From contig CAWEAA010000006.1 of the NCBI GenBank assembly GCA_963806905.1, positions 13,640 through 77,639 on the forward strand: a stretch of DNA of 64,000 nt, given 5' to 3'. The translations under genes and the position numbers were made by a program. Below are positions 7,028-16,498 of this stretch, piece after piece. Positions within the stretch are counted from its first letter, which is position 1. Every line of letters starts with the position of its first letter. The notes under the pieces were generated by a model. It did not search any database, had not been told where the DNA came from, and saw only the letters and a list, made by a program, of their open reading frames with translations. Source of the stretch: an uncultured Verrucomicrobiae bacterium. Lineage in GTDB: Bacteria; Verrucomicrobiota; Verrucomicrobiia; Limisphaerales; UBA11358.

Positions 7028-8365
7028 GTGAATGTCACCGTTGAAAATCTGGCCCCGTGCAAAAAACTCGTGCGGGTGGAAGTGGACGCCAAGGCCGTGG
7101 ACGAGGCCTTTGCCGCCGTCACGAAGGATTTCCAGAAACAGGCCTCGCTGCCCGGGTTCCGTCCGGGCAAGGCGCCGCGCGAGCTGGTCGCCAAAAAATA
7201 CGAGGCCGACATCAAGGCCGAAGCCAAGCGCAAACTCATCAGCGATGCGTATCGCAAGGCGGTGGACGAAAAGAAAATCGCCGTGGTCGGCTACCCGGAT
7301 ATCGAGGAAATTCAGTTTGGCCGCGGTCAGGCGCTGCAATTCGCTGCGACCATCGAGACCGCGCCGGAATTTCAAATACCCGATTACAAAGGGCTGCGGG
7401 TCAAACGCGAGGCCAAGTCCGTCGCCGAGGCCGACGTGGAGCGCGCGGTGGAACTGCTCCGGCGGCAGCACACGAAGTTCGAGACGGTCGCGCGCGAGGC
7501 GCATCCGGGCGACATCGCGGTGGTGAATTACACCGGCACGTGCGACGGCAAGCCCATCACCGACACCGCGCCGACGGCGAAGGGGCTGACGGAGCAGAAA
7601 AATTTCTGGGTGGACATCGGGCCGGAGGCGTTCCTGCCCGGTTTTGCCGAGCAACTTACCGGCGCCAGGGCGGGCGACCGGCGTGCGGTCAACGTGGATT
7701 TCCCCGCCGATTTCGTGACGAAGGAACTCGCGGGCAAAAAGGGCGTTTTTGAAATTGAAGTCGTTGAGATAAAGGAAAAAATTTTGCCGCCGGTGGACGA
7801 CGCGCTCGCCAGGCTTTACGGCGCGGAAAACCTGGAGAAGCTCCGCGCCGGCGTGCGGCGGGACCTGGAGAACGAATTGAATTATTCTCAGGCCAGGTCC
7901 ATCCGCACACAGGTCATCCGCGGGCTGCTCGATCGCGTGAATTTTGATCTGCCCGAATCCGCGGTCGCGCAGGAGACGCGCAACGCGGTCTATGACATCG
8001 TGCGTCAAAACACCAAGCGCGGTGCCACCCGCGAGATGATTGAGCAGCAAAAGGAGCAAATCTACTCGGCGGCCACCTACAACGCGAAGGAACGCGTGAA
8101 GCTGTCGTTTTTGATCCAGCGCATTGCGGACAAGGAAGAACTCAAGGTGTCAGAGGAAGAAATTTTGAAACGCGCGCAGTCGCTGGCGGCGTTGTACCAG
8201 ATTCCGCTCGAAAAATTCCTGAAGGATTTGCAGAAGCGCAACGGCGTGCCCGAGCTTTACGAGCAAATCCTGCACGAAAAGGCGCTTGACCTGCTGGAAA
8301 AGAGCGCGGTCATCGAGGATGTCCCGGCATCCGGGTCGCCGGCTCCGGGCGCAAATCCGAGCTGA
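7028..8365 (+). CDS. tig: Trigger factor
   Basis: 445 aa with a GTG start. N-terminal ribosome-binding domain with the GFRPGKAP signature, plus central PPIase-like and C-terminal arm regions. Confidence 0.9.
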   Translation: MNVTVENLAPCKKLVRVEVDAKAVDEAFAAVTKDFQKQASLPGFRPGKAPRELVAKKYEADIKAEAKRKLISDAYRKAVDEKKIAVVGYPDIEEIQFGRGQALQFAATIETAPEFQIPDYKGLRVKREAKSVAEADVERAVELLRRQHTKFETVAREAHPGDIAVVNYTGTCDGKPITDTAPTAKGLTEQKNFWVDIGPEAFLPGFAEQLTGARAGDRRAVNVDFPADFVTKELAGKKGVFEIEVVEIKEKILPPVDDALARLYGAENLEKLRAGVRRDLENELNYSQARSIRTQVIRGLLDRVNFDLPESAVAQETRNAVYDIVRQNTKRGATREMIEQQKEQIYSAATYNAKERVKLSFLIQRIADKEELKVSEEEILKRAQSLAALYQIPLEKFLKDLQKRNGVPELYEQILHEKALDLLEKSAVIEDVPASGSPAPGANPS

Positions 8366-8442
8366 GTCGGAATTAACCAGACGGTTACCTCCGGGCGCGC
8401 CGGCGCGTCTTAGGTTTGACGAATCGCGGCGAAAGCCGCAAC

Positions 8443-10215
8443 ATGCACAGCACCATGAAACGTTTCAGTGTCGTTTTGATTGTTTTCTCCCTGGCCCTGG
8501 CCGCGCAGGCGCAGACGGACACGAATGCGGCCACCGTGCCAGCCGAGACCAACGCACCGGCACTCCAACCGGAGGCCAATACGGTCGCCGTCCAAACAAA
8601 TTCAAACCCGGCCGCCACGCAAACGGACACGAACGCGGCCCCCACGCCGGTCGAAACCAACGCACCCGCCCCGCCTCCCGGGACCAATGCGACCGCCGGC
8701 ACGACCAACACCCCCTTGAGCTACCAGTGGCTGTTCAACGGTACCAAGGCGCAGACGAACGCGACCGCCGGCACAATCAACACCAATGGCCGCGCGATGT
8801 CGTTGAAGGACTGTATCCAGGAAGCCCTCCAGCACAACCTCGACGTGCAGATTGAGCGCTACAATCCGCAAATCCAGCGATACAATTTGAGCGCGGCCTA
8901 CAGCGGTTACGATCCGTTGCTCAACATTTCCGGCCAGCACGATTACGACGTGAGTGGCAGTGTCTTTCAAAATGGGTTTGAATTGCCCGGTTCCATTTCC
9001 GATGAGAACAAATTTAATTCCGATATCGGCGGCACACTGCCGATGGGGTTGCAGTATGATTTCAGCGGGAACGTCAATCAGCAATATGGCACACTAAATC
9101 CAGGGACGACCAACGCCTCGCCCTTTGAAAGCTCTTCGGGTCAGATTCAAGTTCAATTGAAGCAACCGCTGTTGAAGAATTTCTGGATAGACACCACGCG
9201 TCTTAACATTCGCGTTGCCAAGAACCGCTTGAAATATTCCGAGCAGGGCCTGCGGCAGCAAATCATAAACTCGGTCACCGCCGTTGAGAATGCCTACTAC
9301 GAACTCATTTACGCGCTGGAAAACGTAACGGTGCAGCAGGAGGCGCTGGTGCTCGCCCAGACGCAGCTTGACCAGGACAACCAGCGCGTGCAAATCGGCA
9401 CGCTTGCCATCTTGAGTGTCCAGCAGGATGAATCCCAGGTGGCGCAGAGCCAGGCCAATCTGATTGCCGCACAATTTACTCTGGTCACCGACCAAAATAC
9501 GTTGAAGAACCTACTCGCGGACACGAACTACACCCGATGGCACGATACGGACATTCAGCCGCTGGAGACGCTCACCGCGCCCGTGCAAACTTACAATTTG
9601 CAGGACAGTTGGCGGAAGGGCATGACCGAACGACCGGACCTCTTGCAGGCGCAATTGAATGTGGAGCAGCAGGGCATCCAGTTAAAGTATTACCGCAACC
9701 AGCTTTTTCCCGAACTCGATTTGACCGGCACCTACGGTTACAACGGCTCAGGCACGCAATTCAGCGACGAATTCAACCAGTTCAACGAAGGCAACCGGCC
9801 ATTTTACAGCTACGGCGCGCAAATGACGATTCCGCTCAGCAATGTCGGCCCGCGCAATCAATACAAGTCCAACAAGGCAACGTTGCAACAAGTCACGCTG
9901 CAACTGAAACAACTCGAACAAAACGTTTTGGTGGAAATCGATAATGCGGTGAAGCAGGCCCAATCCAACTTCCAAAGCGTGGAGGCCACGAAACAGGCGC
10001 GCATTTACGCCGAGGCCGCGCTGGACGCGGAGCAGAAAACCTACGCTGTCGGCAAGGCCACCACCTTTGAAGTGCTGCAATATCAAAACAGCCTCACCGC
10101 CGCGCGCTCGCAGGAAATTCGCGCGCTGGCCAATTACAACGAGGCGCTCGTCAATCTCGCCGCGCAGGAAGGCAGCACGCTCGAACGCAACAACATCAAC
10201 ATCGAGGCGAAGTAA
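8443..10215 (+). CDS. TolC-family outer membrane efflux protein with low-complexity N-terminal extension
   Basis: ORF opens at TTG 8416, with ATGs at 8443 and 8455. Signal peptide MKRFSVVLIVFSLALAAQA, about 110 aa of Thr/Asn/Ala/Pro-rich sequence, then TolC-type repeats (LKDCIQEALQHNLDVQ ...). Confidence 0.8.
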   Translation: MHSTMKRFSVVLIVFSLALAAQAQTDTNAATVPAETNAPALQPEANTVAVQTNSNPAATQTDTNAAPTPVETNAPAPPPGTNATAGTTNTPLSYQWLFNGTKAQTNATAGTINTNGRAMSLKDCIQEALQHNLDVQIERYNPQIQRYNLSAAYSGYDPLLNISGQHDYDVSGSVFQNGFELPGSISDENKFNSDIGGTLPMGLQYDFSGNVNQQYGTLNPGTTNASPFESSSGQIQVQLKQPLLKNFWIDTTRLNIRVAKNRLKYSEQGLRQQIINSVTAVENAYYELIYALENVTVQQEALVLAQTQLDQDNQRVQIGTLAILSVQQDESQVAQSQANLIAAQFTLVTDQNTLKNLLADTNYTRWHDTDIQPLETLTAPVQTYNLQDSWRKGMTERPDLLQAQLNVEQQGIQLKYYRNQLFPELDLTGTYGYNGSGTQFSDEFNQFNEGNRPFYSYGAQMTIPLSNVGPRNQYKSNKATLQQVTLQLKQLEQNVLVEIDNAVKQAQSNFQSVEATKQARIYAEAALDAEQKTYAVGKATTFEVLQYQNSLTAARSQEIRALANYNEALVNLAAQEGSTLERNNINIEAK

Positions 10216-12478: not shown

Positions 12479-13621
12479 TCATCCGGCCAAAATTCTCCGC
12501 GCCGCCTTCACCAGCGCCTCCACTTCCGCCGGCGTGCCAATCGTGATCCGCAGGTAATTTTTCACTTCTGGAAAACTGAACCAGCGGACGAGGATTTTCT
12601 GTTCGCGCAATTTGTGCTGCCATTCGTGCGCGGCGAAGCGCGGCGGTCGCGCGAGAATGAAATTCGTCCGGCTCGGAAAAACCCGGAAACCGAGCTTCGT
12701 CAATTCGCGGGCCAGCCACTCGCGCGTGGTGATGATCTTTTTGAAATTCGCGCGGTAATACTTCAAATCGCCCAGCGCCACTTCCGCCGCGATCTGGCCG
12801 AGGCCGTTCACGTTGTAGCTGTCGCGAATCTTGTGCAGCGCAGCGATGAGTTCGGGGTGCCCGACAAAATAGCCGACGCGCTGGAAGCACAGCGAATACG
12901 CCTTGGAAAACGTCCGCGCCACCAGCACATGCGGATATTTCAACGCCAGCTTCAGCGCGTTTTCCTCCGCGAAATCCACATAAGCCTCGTCGAGAATGAC
13001 GACGCCCTTCTGCGCCACACAAAGCTTTTCCAGTTCCGAGGTTTTGTAACCGTGCCCACTCGGCGCGTTGGGTGTTGTGACATAAATCAGCGCGGCGTCA
13101 AATCTCCAAACTCCGCTCCGTTTCAATTCGGCCAGGCTTGGCAAACTGAAATCCGGTTTGAGCGGCACCGGATTTTTTGCTGCGCCATGTATGTCCGCCA
13201 GCACCGGATAGAGCGAATAGCTCGGGAGGAAATATTGGATAATTTGGTAGGGACGCCTCGCCGAGGCGTCCGCGGACACGCGAGGCCGCGTGTCCCTACC
13301 CGAAATCGGCTCTACAAACGCTCGCGTGGCCAGCGCCAGCAATTCATCCGAGCCGTTGCCCACGACGAGGTTGTCCGCGTGGCAGCCGTGCAGCTTCGCC
13401 AGTTTTTCGCGCAACACCTGCGCCGTCGGATTCGGATACAGCCGCAACCGCCCGTCCACCGCCGCCTTGACCGCCGCCAGCACTTTCGGCGACGGCGGAT
13501 ACGGATTCTCGTTCGTGTTGAGCTTGATCAACCCCTTGATTTTCGGCTGCTCGCCATAGAGGTAAGGGTGCAACTCGCTTACCAGCGGGCGGATAAAATT
13601 TTTCAAGCTGGTCTTGTTCAT
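12479..13621 (-). CDS. hisC: Histidinol-phosphate aminotransferase
   Basis: ORF is open to 13738; the ATG at 13621 gives MNKTSLKNF. Motifs LNTNENPYPPSP and TFSKAYSL (PLP lysine). Contains an in-frame palindromic insert at 13246-13300. Confidence 0.88.
   Translation of the reverse strand: MNKTSLKNFIRPLVSELHPYLYGEQPKIKGLIKLNTNENPYPPSPKVLAAVKAAVDGRLRLYPNPTAQVLREKLAKLHGCHADNLVVGNGSDELLALATRAFVEPISGRDTRPRVSADASARRPYQIIQYFLPSYSLYPVLADIHGAAKNPVPLKPDFSLPSLAELKRSGVWRFDAALIYVTTPNAPSGHGYKTSELEKLCVAQKGVVILDEAYVDFAEENALKLALKYPHVLVARTFSKAYSLCFQRVGYFVGHPELIAALHKIRDSYNVNGLGQIAAEVALGDLKYYRANFKKIITTREWLARELTKLGFRVFPSRTNFILARPPRFAAHEWQHKLREQKILVRWFSFPEVKNYLRITIGTPAEVEALVKAARRILAG
13246..13300. repeat. GTAGGG...CCCTAC two-hairpin palindromic element, in frame in hisC
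   Basis: Sequence is ggtaggg-[ggacgcctcg c cgaggcgtcc]-gcg-[gacacgcg aggc cgcgtgtc]-cctacc. Translated GRDTRPRVSADASARRPYQ. Confidence 0.85.
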
Positions 13622-13788
13622 CTCAAGGGAACAACGTGGACTCTCGACTGCGAAAGCAAATGAATTACCATGCGCACAGGATAAACACATTCGCCGGAAT
13701 GAAAAGATTTTCAGCGCAGACAATCGTTCGCAATGCATCTTCTATCGCCGGAAAACGCAGTTGACAATGGTAACATAAATGCTACTAT

Positions 13789-14115
13789 ATGAACGGCTCT
13801 TTCGAGATTCGTGAATACACTGAAGGCGGGCGCTCGCCGTTCGCGGAGTGGTTCGACGATTTGGACGCGGTGACGGCGGCGCGGGTGGACAGATACGTCC
13901 GCTGGCTGGAAGCGGGCAACTTCGGCGCGGCCAAGCCGCTGCGTCATGGAGTGTTTGAACTGCGGCTGGATTTTGGGCCGGGCTACCGCGTGTATTACGG
14001 ACGCGAAGGCCGGACCATCATCATCCTGCTTGGCGGTGGCAGCAAACGCCGGCAGGACGCCGACATCGCCGCTGCGGTGGAACGCTGGAAACGATACAAA
14101 CAGACAAAGGCATGA
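13789..14115 (+). CDS. RelE/ParE-superfamily toxin (HigB-like addiction module killer protein)
   Basis: 108 aa with a family-typical pattern: FAEWFDDLD, GNFGAAKPL, GVFELRLDFGPGYRVYY, IILLGGGSKRRQDADI. Confidence 0.75.
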   Translation: MNGSFEIREYTEGGRSPFAEWFDDLDAVTAARVDRYVRWLEAGNFGAAKPLRHGVFELRLDFGPGYRVYYGREGRTIIILLGGGSKRRQDADIAAAVERWKRYKQTKA

Positions 14116-14116
14116 C

Positions 14117-14440
14117 ATGGCACTGACGCGAGATTACAAGGAAACCGTGGTGGCGCGGATCAAACGCGACCGGAAATTTGCGCGGGCGCTCTACGCCGAA
14201 GCCGTGGGCGCGTTGCTGGAAGGCGAAACTGCCGAAGGACTTTCCATGCTGCGCGACCTGGTTCACGCCGAAATCACCTTCAAGGAACTGGCGCGACAGA
14301 CCGGCCTGGGCGAAAAGACGCTGCACCGGATGCTGAACCGCAACGGCAACCCCACCGCACGCAACCTGGGTGTGATTGTGCGGCACATTGCCGAGGACTT
14401 GCGCATCAAACCGCGCGTGGAAGTGGCCGTGGCGCATTAA
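14117..14440 (+). CDS. HigA-like antitoxin (XRE-type HTH antidote protein)
   Basis: 107 aa, starting 1 nt after the toxin stop. HTH segment FKELARQTGLGEKTLHRMLNRNGNPTARNL. Confidence 0.75.
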   Translation: MALTRDYKETVVARIKRDRKFARALYAEAVGALLEGETAEGLSMLRDLVHAEITFKELARQTGLGEKTLHRMLNRNGNPTARNLGVIVRHIAEDLRIKPRVEVAVAH

Positions 14441-14460
14441 GGCCGCAACCGCGAGAGCTG

Positions 14461-14486
14461 TAGCCGCGCTTGTGAAAGCGCGGCTA
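14461..14486 (+). terminator. Hairpin downstream of the TA pair
   Basis: Stem-loop tagccgcgc-ttgtgaaa-gcgcggcta (9-bp stem), followed by only a weak T tail (ttcc). Confidence 0.4.
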
Positions 14487-14508
14487 TTCCGGCGATTTGC
14501 ATCGGCGG

Positions 14509-14586
14509 CTACATCACCGGCTGCTCGCCATAGACGCAAGGGTGCAACTCGCGCACCGGCGGGCGGATGAATGATGAAACTTTCAT
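14509..14586 (-). pseudogene. Truncated duplicate of the hisC 5' end
   Basis: Reads MKVSSFIRPPVRELHPCVYGEQPVM then stop, versus the hisC N-terminus MNKTSLKNFIRPLVSELHPYLYGEQP. 46/51 nt identical by hand alignment with 13544-13594. Confidence 0.75.
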
Positions 14587-14590
14587 TAAC

Positions 14591-15184
14591 TCAATCGAGA
14601 GAAGGCAATCGGCGCCGTCTTTCTATTTCTTTTGAAACACATTTCTCACAAACACCATAAATCTGATCGGAATAGCATTCGGTCGCCAAAGGCGTGTCTG
14701 CATCAGCGTGAGAACAACGGCTGTTTGGAGTGTAACTTCTGAAAACTACAATACCGTCGCAAGCGGTTTTCTGTTGCAATGCCAAAGCAACACGCTTCAT
14801 ACACGATTCGCAAAACCAAAACAGCTTTGCATCCGGTGGTCTTTCTGCTTTACGACACAAGCAACAACGCAATGTTCTACGGATGCCATCCAATTCCTTC
14901 ACATAGGGCTGTCGTTTCGGAAATGCCAAACAATCCCCAAGCAAATCGTCCATCTTCCACGACGTTTCTTGGGACAGAAGAGCGATTCGAGAAACAATAT
15001 CCATTTTGCGTCTAACGAGTTCAGTGTGAATTATACAAACTTCACGATTGTGTTGTTTCACGCGCTGGCCATTCGGAAGATCGTTATCACAAACTCCAAC
15101 GTGCCGAAGTTCCAAGCAAAGTTCATCCAATAAGTCTAAGTCTGAACGCTCTTGAATCGGTGGTTTCGGTGGCGTGTTGGCCAT
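14591..15184 (-). CDS. Cys-rich protein with zinc-ribbon motif, unknown function (low GC)
   Basis: 197 aa. C-x2-C-x14-C-x2-C (CCLCRKAERPPDAKLFWFCESC) plus a second Cys/His cluster (CSH..C..CEKC). Spot GC of 42-43% versus about 60% in flanking genes. Lies 21 nt after the hisD stop. Confidence 0.6.
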   Translation of the reverse strand: MANTPPKPPIQERSDLDLLDELCLELRHVGVCDNDLPNGQRVKQHNREVCIIHTELVRRKMDIVSRIALLSQETSWKMDDLLGDCLAFPKRQPYVKELDGIRRTLRCCLCRKAERPPDAKLFWFCESCMKRVALALQQKTACDGIVVFRSYTPNSRCSHADADTPLATECYSDQIYGVCEKCVSKEIERRRRLPSLD

Positions 15185-15205: not shown

Positions 15206-16498
15206 TCATTTTGAGCGAATTTCCGCGCTTTTTCCGTGCGCGCCCAGGCCTTCAAGTTCGGCGAATTTTTTCACGGTGGGCAGTGCTTTCTTGAGAGCGG
15301 CGCGGTTGTAGTCCACCACGCTTGTGCGGCGCTGGAATTGGTCAACGGTCAGTCCGGCAAACGACACGCCCGCGCCGCCGGTCGGCAGCGTATGGCTCGG
15401 CCCGGCTACGTAATCGCCCAGCACCGTCGGCGACCACGGACCGAGAAAAATCGCGCCCGCCGTCAAAATGCCTTCGGAAACTTTGCGCGGATTGCGCGTC
15501 ATTACCTCACAATGCTCCGGTGCCAGCCGGTTTGCCAAGGCCACGCCGTCATCTAGCGATTTCACCTGAATCAGCCAACCATTGTTTTGCAATGCGCGTT
15601 GAATAAATTCACGGCGCGCCAGTTTCGGCAGTTGGCGCGCGATTTCCCTTTCGACGGCTTTTAAAATTTTGTCCGAGGTTGTCACCAGCCAGACGCGTTC
15701 GTGGCCGGAGCCGTGTTCGGCCTGCGCCAGCAAGTCGGCGGCAACAAATTTCGGGTTGGCCGTGTCGTCCGCCAGCACCAGCACCTCGCTCGGCCCGGGC
15801 AGCAGATCAATCGCGACGCGGCCGACCAGCAATCGTTTGGCCGCGACGACGTACTCGTTGCCGGGACCGAAAATCTTTTGCACACGACGAATCGTCTTCG
15901 TGCCAAAAGCCATCGCCGCAATCGCCTGTGCCCCGCCGACGCGGTAAATCTCCGTCGCGCCCGCCGCGCGCGTGGCGAACAGCAGCGCCGAATTGATTCC
16001 GCCATCCCTGCCGCACGGCGTGCAGGCGACAATCTCCGGGCAGCCCGCGACTTTCGCCAGCGTGATGGTCATCAATGCGGTGGAAGCCAGCGGCGCCTTG
16101 CCGCCGGGGATGTAAACGCCCACGCGCTGGAACGGATCGAACTTTTCGCCGACCGTCGCGCCGTGTGAATTCTTCGTCTGCCAGTTTTTGTGCAGCGATT
16201 TTTTGGCGAAGGCGGCGATGTTTTTCTCTGCCTCGGCCACGGCCTTGCGCAGCGATTCATCGGCGGCGAGCGAGGCATTGAACAATTCCGCCTGTGAGAT
16301 GGCCAGCCGGTCGGCGGCAAGCTTCACGCCGTCGAAGCGTTCCGTGAACTCCAGCAGCGCGGTATCGCCATGCACCTGCACGGCGTCGAGGATGGCGCGG
16401 GTGCGTTGCTCGATTTCCGGATCAAACAGGCTGGAGGCGGCGGTCAGGTCGCGGAGTTTCCCGGCAAAGTTCGCGTCGCTGTGGCGGATGACTTTCAT
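15206..16498 (-). CDS. hisD: Histidinol dehydrogenase
   Basis: 430 aa with conserved blocks IFGPGNEYV, PGPSEVLVLAD and LAQAEHG. Confidence 0.92.
   Translation of the reverse strand: MKVIRHSDANFAGKLRDLTAASSLFDPEIEQRTRAILDAVQVHGDTALLEFTERFDGVKLAADRLAISQAELFNASLAADESLRKAVAEAEKNIAAFAKKSLHKNWQTKNSHGATVGEKFDPFQRVGVYIPGGKAPLASTALMTITLAKVAGCPEIVACTPCGRDGGINSALLFATRAAGATEIYRVGGAQAIAAMAFGTKTIRRVQKIFGPGNEYVVAAKRLLVGRVAIDLLPGPSEVLVLADDTANPKFVAADLLAQAEHGSGHERVWLVTTSDKILKAVEREIARQLPKLARREFIQRALQNNGWLIQVKSLDDGVALANRLAPEHCEVMTRNPRKVSEGILTAGAIFLGPWSPTVLGDYVAGPSHTLPTGGAGVSFAGLTVDQFQRRTSVVDYNRAALKKALPTVKKFAELEGLGAHGKSAEIRSK

Follow-up and report, generated by a model that had tools for sequence, protein, structure and literature searches.

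Why does hisC, the gene of histidinol-phosphate aminotransferase, begin twice at its locus in an uncultured Verrucomicrobiae bacterium? The window, i.e. the whole stretch of 64,000 nucleotides analysed here (assembly GCA_963806905.1, contig CAWEAA010000006.1), holds an intact hisC (12479..13621, minus strand), whose 5' end is referred to as copy A, and a second, truncated hisC start, copy B or the hisC' relic (14509..14586, minus strand), behind hisD and an accessory open reading frame (ORF), ORF197. A HigBA-like toxin-antitoxin (TA) pair on the plus strand separates both copies. The duplicated start is probably a recombination scar from cargo exchange in a hypervariable slot between hisD and hisC, with homology of a his gene as anchor and one illegitimate junction. 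The copies come from two different his loci or alleles that were joined, and were not copied in place, because their first codons and their upstream DNA are unrelated and each of them matches a separate allele class elsewhere.

Local alignment in gene sense yields one ungapped block, 13544-13597 in copy A versus 14518-14571 in copy B, with 48 of 54 identical nucleotides (89%) and a longest identical core of 17 nt. Its score of 78 lies far above that of mononucleotide shuffles (mean 16.5, sd 2.2, maximum 29). In a repeat search the pair, with copies 974 nt apart, is the top-ranked direct repeat (D1). The initial annotation of this DNA had reported a hisC 5' end present twice in direct orientation, from a hand alignment with 46 of 51 matches; the computed alignment is close to that count and confirms the repeat, and the contiguous similarity ends at 13543/14517, where it had been placed. 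The proposed repeat length of about 75 nt is too long. As the first 15-27 nt differ (N-terminal MKVSS in copy B versus MNKTSLKN in copy A) and the DNA upstream of copy A is unrelated to that upstream of copy B, the true repeat comprises 54 nt. Copy B reads ATG (14586-14584) MKVSSFIRPPVRELHPCVYGEQPVM and ends after 25 codons with the stop TAG at 14511-14509; its ATG is located 5 nt past the stop of ORF197, and start, reading frame and stop are as described before. The same arrangement recurs in an NCBI assembly contig, L173 (loci and contigs are cited by L numbers, proteins by P numbers), and in L175 and L176, short Logan contigs that derive from different runs, ORF197 is followed by an opposite-strand ORF at the position of higA in L173. 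Since the order hisD-ORF197-relic-TA-hisC recurs in L173 and in part in L175 and L176, it is not an assembly artefact.

The origin of copy B becomes apparent from the gene upstream of it. hisD (histidinol dehydrogenase, 15206..16498, minus strand; Pfam PF00815, E 1.5e-148) forms the left conserved flank of the variable slot and is followed by ORF197 (14591..15184, minus strand), a Cys-rich accessory gene with a GC content of 45% against a background of about 60% in the GC profile. The order hisD-ORF197-hisC, with no TA pair called, is found in L161/L162 (ORF197 89% identical in amino acids), L179 and L180 (87%), L163/L164 (80%) and L169 (68%). Empty sites therefore exist in relatives, and the earlier view that hisC was parted from hisD by an insertion or replacement event is supported. 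At these sites hisC starts 4-5 nt past the ORF197 stop (L161, L163, L179, L180) or overlaps with it by 1 nt (L169), and its N-terminus, MKVASLIRPLV or VKITSLIRPLV, resembles copy B. The MKV(A/S)S N-terminus and the ORF197-stop/ATG junction of copy B match L161, L179 and L180: the junction of L161 reads ...TCTCTTGATTAAGTCA ATG AAA GTC GCA TCT CTC ATT CGT CCG CTG..., that of the window ...TCTCTCGATTGAGTTA ATG AAA GTT TCA TCA TTC ATC CGC CCG CCG.... The hisC 5' ends of ORF197-bearing relatives are 82-85% identical to the relic and 76-80% to copy A. Because hisC of the empty sites starts exactly like copy B, the latter is the native hisC start of ORF197-bearing operons. It is now a decaying pseudogene fragment, which has changed at invariant residues, L to P at a position with L in 79/80 relatives and Y to C at a position with Y in 80/80. 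This agrees with the former description as a dead copy; no function is expected of the 25-codon relic.

Copy A belongs to a different allele class. The leader of the intact hisC (13622..13747, minus strand) is conserved with other hisC loci in its part next to the gene (13622-13678), and with L002 only in its distal part (13679-13747). L012 (to 13655) and L069 (to 13678) have the hisC-proximal 34-57 nt and an N-terminus of the MNK type in common with the window, and in neither of these two loci was a homologue of this TA pair found adjoining hisC. The MNK class also occurs in L025, L015, L008 and others. The 126 nt that separate the intact hisC from the TA module do not belong to the latter, and copy A is preceded by the inverted HigBA module in the window and in L002. 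As leader and N-terminus also occur where no homologue of this TA pair was found, copy A with its 57-nt leader is an ordinary, widespread hisC allele and not TA-borne. The intact gene has a full-length TIGR01141 match (302.4 bits versus a cut-off of 276.55, E 3.6e-90), split in two by an in-frame insert, and is L002-like over its entire length.

The minus strand shows no convincing sigma-70 promoter for hisC, just a weak sigma-70-like match overlapping the start codon; the only promoter predicted between relic and intact hisC is that of the TA pair, and leader and junction lack Rfam matches at E<=1. Cut off from hisD-ORF197 by a convergently transcribed TA operon, hisC must use its own leader or read-through. 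The initial annotation had proposed a promoter inside the insert, used divergently by hisC and the TA pair; the conserved part of the leader, however, is a portion of the hisC allele and not of the TA module.

The TA module itself shows nothing unusual. Its left border is a predicted promoter, TTGACA-16-TACTAT, with an imperfect palindromic operator (GTAACATAAATGCTAC; 13761..13788, plus strand), followed by a higB-like toxin gene of the RelE/ParE family (Gp49 / upstrm_HI1419; 13789..14115, plus strand; TIGR02683 with 98.9 bits versus a cut-off of 62.85, E 1.6e-28; PF05973 above cut-off) and a higA-like helix-turn-helix (HTH) antitoxin gene (14117..14440, plus strand; HTH_26, E 1.3e-4, and weak dnstrm_HI1420 matches), whose product is 94-96% identical in L002 and L076. 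With its toxin gene of the RelE/ParE fold and the HTH antitoxin gene behind it in the same operon, the module is predicted to be a type II TA system of the HigBA/Gp49-HI1419 type. With known modules of this type it shares the toxin-first order, the 4-nt-spaced bicistron and the palindromic operator over the promoter. The predicted -10 hexamer TACTAT directly abuts the annotated higB ATG (13783-13791), and the real start codon or transcription start of higB may differ from this simple reading.

Homologues of the toxin (76-94% identity) are present in about 25 other Verrucomicrobiota genomes (L081-L104), always accompanied by the antitoxin, and none of them lies within 5 kb of hisC or hisD. DNA homology to these copies extends from the -35 hexamer to a few base pairs past the antitoxin stop, about 13748/13760 to 14434/14447; the flanks diverge immediately upstream of TTGACA, and the promoter sequence is kept in all copies. 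No hisC-like sequence was found at the ends of the copies in L081-L104, and their flanks are unrelated. Because homology among the copies stops at promoter and stop codon, the module reaches from its promoter to its stop and carries no hisC-like end.

The slot between hisD and hisC proves to be highly variable among relatives. A HisC scan of species-representative genomes resulted in 80 loci, nearly all from metagenome-assembled genomes of Verrucomicrobiota/Limisphaerales. Both hisD and hisC are present in 58 of the 80, and the two genes flank the slot in all 58. They abut in 24/58, typically with the hisD stop overlapping the hisC start (ATGA), and in the other 34/58 the slot is occupied by cargo of 0.1-3.7 kb, which varies between genomes. 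Five TA types are represented: HigBA (L002, with an orphan higA in L076), VapBC (L017, L018, L029, L040, L043, L075, L076, L165-168, with vapB alone in L022), HicAB (L004), a MazEF-like PemK/MazF pair (L005) and DUF433/DUF5615 (L037, L048). Other products encoded in the slot are a type II restriction-like (REase-like) protein, a DndB-like one, glycosyl hydrolases (GH106 among them), an acyltransferase, a response regulator and TPR proteins; many AT-rich ORFs matched nothing. A scan of 32 cargo proteins of the 34 occupied slots, as well as of ORF197, higB and higA, detected neither recombinase nor integrase nor transposase; likewise, no integrase occurs within about 5 kb in L173, L163 and L165, where the neighbours are housekeeping genes. 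In the clade of the window (L002-L005, L007, L010, L011), hisD is 86-89% and the downstream AAA gene 92-94% identical in nucleotides, with a different slot content in each genome. Since cargo differs in every genome even within this clade, the hisD/hisC junction is a fast-turnover slot, i.e. a cargo hotspot. Variable islets between core genes are genomic hotspots that collect TA and defence genes. The his slot resembles them in its different cargo at the same intergenic position and in its enrichment in type II TA pairs, besides restriction-like and DndB-like genes; it differs in being located inside an otherwise translationally coupled junction, so that every insertion uncouples or re-couples hisC.

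Truncated his-gene pieces are present in other occupied slots as well. L040 has the order hisD-ORF115-hisC'(aa 1-47)-VapB-VapC-hisC, and the hisC' pieces of L029 and L022 end about 6 nt beyond the relic end of L040. In L165-168 the order is hisD-ORF199 (ORF197 family)-hisC'-VapBC-hisC, with a hisC' that has a stop in codon 5 and ends after GEQ; L075 shares this hisC'|VapBC junction, with another ORF upstream of it. The hisC relics therefore end at about nt 70 (window, L165, L075), 141 (L040) and 147 (L029, L022). Mirror relics are found in L010, L050, L012 and L015, where a full hisD and cargo are followed by a second copy of the hisD 3' end (136 nt, 90% in L010), which in L010 and L050 sits in the native junction with hisC. 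Orphan antitoxins and truncated promoter elements in L076, L022, L002 and L018 appear to show that cargo modules have been displaced sequentially.

Cargo and flanks of the window also differ in their relatives. Its hisD, its hisC and the genes downstream cluster with L002-L005, L007, L010 and L011 (86-94% nucleotide identity), none of which has ORF197, and the nearest ORF197 genes (86-88%) adjoin hisD genes only 79-82% identical to hisD of the window. The higA of L076 is 93% identical to that of the window in nucleotides, its hisC 71% in amino acids. This incongruence between cargo and flank relationships points to different histories and therefore to lateral exchange, with hisD divergence near saturation. 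Sliding-window identities revealed no clear mosaic breakpoint in hisC or hisD. L002 is the closest relative in hisC and TA module, and its DNA downstream of hisC (7135-9892) shows no detectable homology to the window. In L003-L005 this side retains AAA-ATPase, CPBP protease and TolC-like genes, so that synteny breaks here, too, in L002.

A scar of this kind could have formed as follows. Copy B is the original start of a hisC translationally packed behind ORF197 in a hisD-ORF197-hisC operon. DNA of a related genome would have recombined with the resident his locus, on one side by homology in a his gene and on the other by an illegitimate (non-homologous or microhomology) join, i.e. by homology-facilitated illegitimate recombination. 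Selection for histidine prototrophy would keep products with one complete hisC, so that the truncated copy could persist as a hitch-hiking relic and subsequently decay. Slightly preferred is that hisD'-ORF197-hisC' came into a locus already holding HigBA-hisC; the collinearity of L002 and the window, which extends from the TA module to the end of hisC at a uniform 88-89%, fits HigBA-hisC as the older part and ORF197-hisC' as the newcomer. The reverse, an entry of HigBA-hisC into hisD-ORF197-hisC, fits almost as well. The initial annotation had taken the TA cassette as the incoming element, whereas what came in may instead have been ORF197 with the relic.

The anatomy of the locus agrees with such an event. 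The 54-nt block of the hisC 5' end is 85-94% identical in nucleotides across lineages and constitutes a conserved anchor. A non-homologous junction, variable end points and truncated leftovers (relics, orphan antitoxins, truncated promoters) are all present. Homology-facilitated illegitimate recombination is a process reported for several bacteria (PMC3240628, PMC5361080), and the sequential displacement of effector-immunity modules of type VI secretion systems (T6SS), which leaves orphan genes, has been proposed to proceed via such recombination (PMC5361080, PMC3240628). As in the T6SS effector-immunity arrays of Vibrio cholerae and the orphan Rhs/CDI 3' ends (PMC5361080, PMC3240628), one conserved flank anchors the exchange, arriving modules take the place of older ones, of which truncated or orphan remnants stay behind (here hisC', hisD', orphan higA, vapB and truncated promoters), close genomes carry different modules and there is no dedicated recombinase. 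In contrast to those systems, the slot of the window is flanked by housekeeping genes of histidine biosynthesis instead of lying in a toxin-delivery locus, its cargo is of mixed kinds (TA pairs, restriction-like genes, ORFs without assignment), and the relic stems from the essential flank itself and is kept since the intact copy must survive; furthermore, the mechanism at the his slot is deduced from comparative anatomy only.

The join proper lies between relic and antitoxin gene. Next to the relic is a 53-nt GTAG...CTAC double-hairpin element (14460..14512), similar to repetitive extragenic palindromic (REP)/REPIN elements, which folds at -46.8 kcal/mol (z -3.3), and between this element and the antitoxin gene is a short junction segment (14441..14459). 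The initial annotation had listed the TA pair and one hairpin between the copies. Both are present, but the hairpin is a double one with homologues inside hisC: in 1.7 Mb of related DNA these occur only in hisC of L017, L038, L041 and L048, at about nt 305-360, and the element is also encoded in P0105. At the corresponding codon position the intact hisC of the window has a different 53-nt GTAG...CTAC element. A multicopy genome repeat was considered and rejected, as the element is single-copy in the window and hisC-internal only in the related loci. It is not merely a terminator of the TA pair; neither strand has a T-tract on which a claim that it terminates hisD-ORF197 read-through could be based. 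The relic may formerly have extended to nt 365 or beyond and then lost nt ~75-310; alternatively, the hairpin element moved on its own. Its flanks share nothing with those of the hisC-internal copies, and a weak microhomology (AGCCGG) could explain its left end. In the junction segment, 14441-14452 (GGCCGCAACCGC) is common to the his-linked HigBA copies of L002 and L076, where its continuation is a promoter element in truncated form, TTTCCCG.CTTGAGCGG. Of this stump the window keeps the last 12 nt, and it diverges at 14453. The join 14513-14459 connects unrelated sequences.

Several observations weigh against a scar of illegitimate recombination. The hairpin sits exactly at the relic end and its ends are the ends of homology, which a random illegitimate join would not predict. 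The relic ends of the window and of the VapBC-linked L165/L075 lie within ~3-6 nt of each other, after GEQP/GEQPK, which a site-specific process would also explain, although this near-coincidence may be chance among few events. Identities of hisD among distant lineages are near saturation (75-82%), which weakens the argument from incongruence. Apart from the same strain, no relative is closer than ~87-89% for hisC or ORF197, and the event is neither polarised nor dated; look-ups of exact proteins returned only the same arrangement, with the nearest other hisC at 87% identity. Finally, the recombination event itself was not observed directly.

An element integrated into the hisC 5' end had been the explanation of the initial annotation: as a site-specific integrative element it would have recognised an attB in the hisC 5' end, supplied a replacement end with its attP and decayed to a TA pair, with the two copies as attL and attR. 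Integration of this kind is known from phage 21/e14, which integrates in icd. SXT/R391 elements insert in the 5' end of prfC (PMC2791158) and are a precedent for an element that integrates into a gene's 5' end. As with these elements, a gene-end duplication brackets foreign DNA in the window and the target gene is intact with its new 5' end; empty sites exist, and two independent cassettes (window versus L165/L075) have relic ends a few nucleotides apart. SXT/R391 and phage 21/e14, however, possess an integrase, a fixed att core and defined ends, whereas no recombinase was found at the window locus, consistent with the absence of an integrase stated earlier. The copies, only 89% identical, lack an identical core above 17 nt, and with relic ends at three different hisC positions, in part beside VapBC, and hisD 3' relics on the other flank, no single att core can be defined, so that the attL/attR-like pair is not supported. 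Nor is the replacement end, as copy A and its leader also occur at loci in which no such TA pair was found. The TA pair is a mobile module, as had been supposed, with sharp borders of its own at non-his loci; inspection of the flanks of these copies showed unrelated DNA and no hisC, which goes against an element targeting the hisC 5' end. The borders of the module largely refute such an integrative element, which is very improbable.

In a Campbell-type single crossover, a circular fragment carrying HigBA and the leader plus ~75 or ~365 nt from the start of hisC would have integrated into the resident hisC 5' end in a RecA-dependent manner. Such a crossover predicts a direct repeat around the insert and similarity that breaks off where the circle was joined, the 54-nt block conserved in the group at 85-94% could serve as crossover site, and the mirror duplications of the hisD 3' end fit the same scheme. 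We nevertheless consider it unlikely. There is no evidence of circular intermediates, 54-75 nt at ~89% identity are a poor RecA substrate, and the hisC body should be that of an ORF197 lineage, whereas the whole hisC is collinear with L002 together with the TA module. Direct repeats 974 nt apart would also result if, within one genome, the hisC 5' region had been duplicated locally in tandem and an unrelated TA insertion had followed. As the first 5-9 codons and the upstream DNA differ completely, each copy matches a distinct allele class, and no relative with both hisC copies but no cargo between them was found among the compared loci, such a duplication can hardly account for the locus. It is also rather improbable that the hisD-hisC junction is a dedicated cassette-exchange platform, where an unlinked trans-acting enzyme (e.g. 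a REP-associated tyrosine transposase) swaps TA and accessory cassettes. Short conserved boundary elements of such a platform may be the 54-nt hisC 5' block, the GTAG...CTAC hairpins at the junctions and a promoter element of 37 nt (TTTCCCGACTTGAGCGG...TAGAAT); if it existed, the enzyme would recognise or cleave the DNA at the near-coincident relic ends after GEQP(K) and at the hairpin bordering the relic.

Promoter remnants accompany several TA genes of the slot. In L076 (4783-5150) higB is precisely deleted, the HigBA promoter/operator is fused to the orphan higA and VapBC follows; in L022 (5752-5985) vapB without vapC is located directly upstream of hisC. The 37-nt promoter-like element (TTTCCCGACTTGAGCGG..GGGTTAGAAT, TTTCCCGACTTGAGCGGTTGGTTGGATGGGTTAGAAT; ends TAGAAT) precedes unrelated TA genes (HicBA, DUF433/DUF5615) in L004, L037 and L048. 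Full copies are found in L004 (5481-5517), L022 (5621-5657), L037 (5404-5440) and L048 (5403-5439), stumps beside higA in L002 (5158-5174) and L076 (4758-4774) and beside the vapB promoter in L018 (5241-5257). Exact matches in 185,579 genomes number five, four of them his loci; the fifth, L182 (1834-1867), precedes a DUF433 TA pair away from hisC. A his-specific element was rejected on account of this match, and because of it the element is most simply the native promoter of the DUF433 TA pair. Apparently, cassettes were displaced downstream of a promoter that stayed in place.

The ORF197 family comprises 91 homologues (P0001-P0091) and is found between hisD and hisC in at least six lineages (L161, L179, L180, L163, L165, L169), with distant members elsewhere. 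ORF197 has no match in four libraries (Pfam, NCBIfam, PADLOC, PHROG). Its AlphaFold2 model is confident (pLDDT 91.9, pTM 0.80) and lacks a significant PDB match (best Foldseek PDB match E 1.4). The family, ~195 aa long, has eight conserved or near-invariant Cys/His residues (C107, C110, C125, C128; C157, H159, C179, C182) and is a putative zinc-binding family with a confident, unmatched fold.

HisC varies in further regions. Its first 8-10 residues, preceding the invariant IRPLV...GEQP block, differ widely even at 85-87% overall identity (L001-L080, P0094-P0105), and the N-terminus type tends to vary with the upstream neighbour (abutting hisD, MNK-class leader, VapBC). A hypervariable in-frame insert is situated in a loop between ...CFVEP and QYFTPSY; in the window (13247..13299) it is built around the 53-nt palindromic double hairpin GTAGGGAC...GTCCCTAC of the GTAG...CTAC type. 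The same codon position is used in L001, L002, L003, L038, L161 and L163, while other lineages have unrelated, often palindromic inserts. The insert resembles REP/REPIN elements or the in-frame Rickettsia palindromic elements. P0093, a hisC homologue of 456 aa, has an internal tandem duplication of ~75 residues (ALTFVTTPNAPSGRGYKT... repeated), which is either real or an assembly artefact.

The scar would be a fresh example of known genome dynamics in a little-studied phylum, with a modest practical or conceptual gain. For annotation it follows that a gene-end duplication alone should not be labelled an att site without further tests. In this uncultured soil/peat lineage, accessory genes and TA pairs appear to be shuffled into a core biosynthetic operon where no mobile-element machinery was found. 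The short gene-end relics may be read as a record of successive displacement events, and the slot forms a natural cargo catalogue for this Limisphaerales group, with five TA types, restriction-like genes and the ORF197 family.

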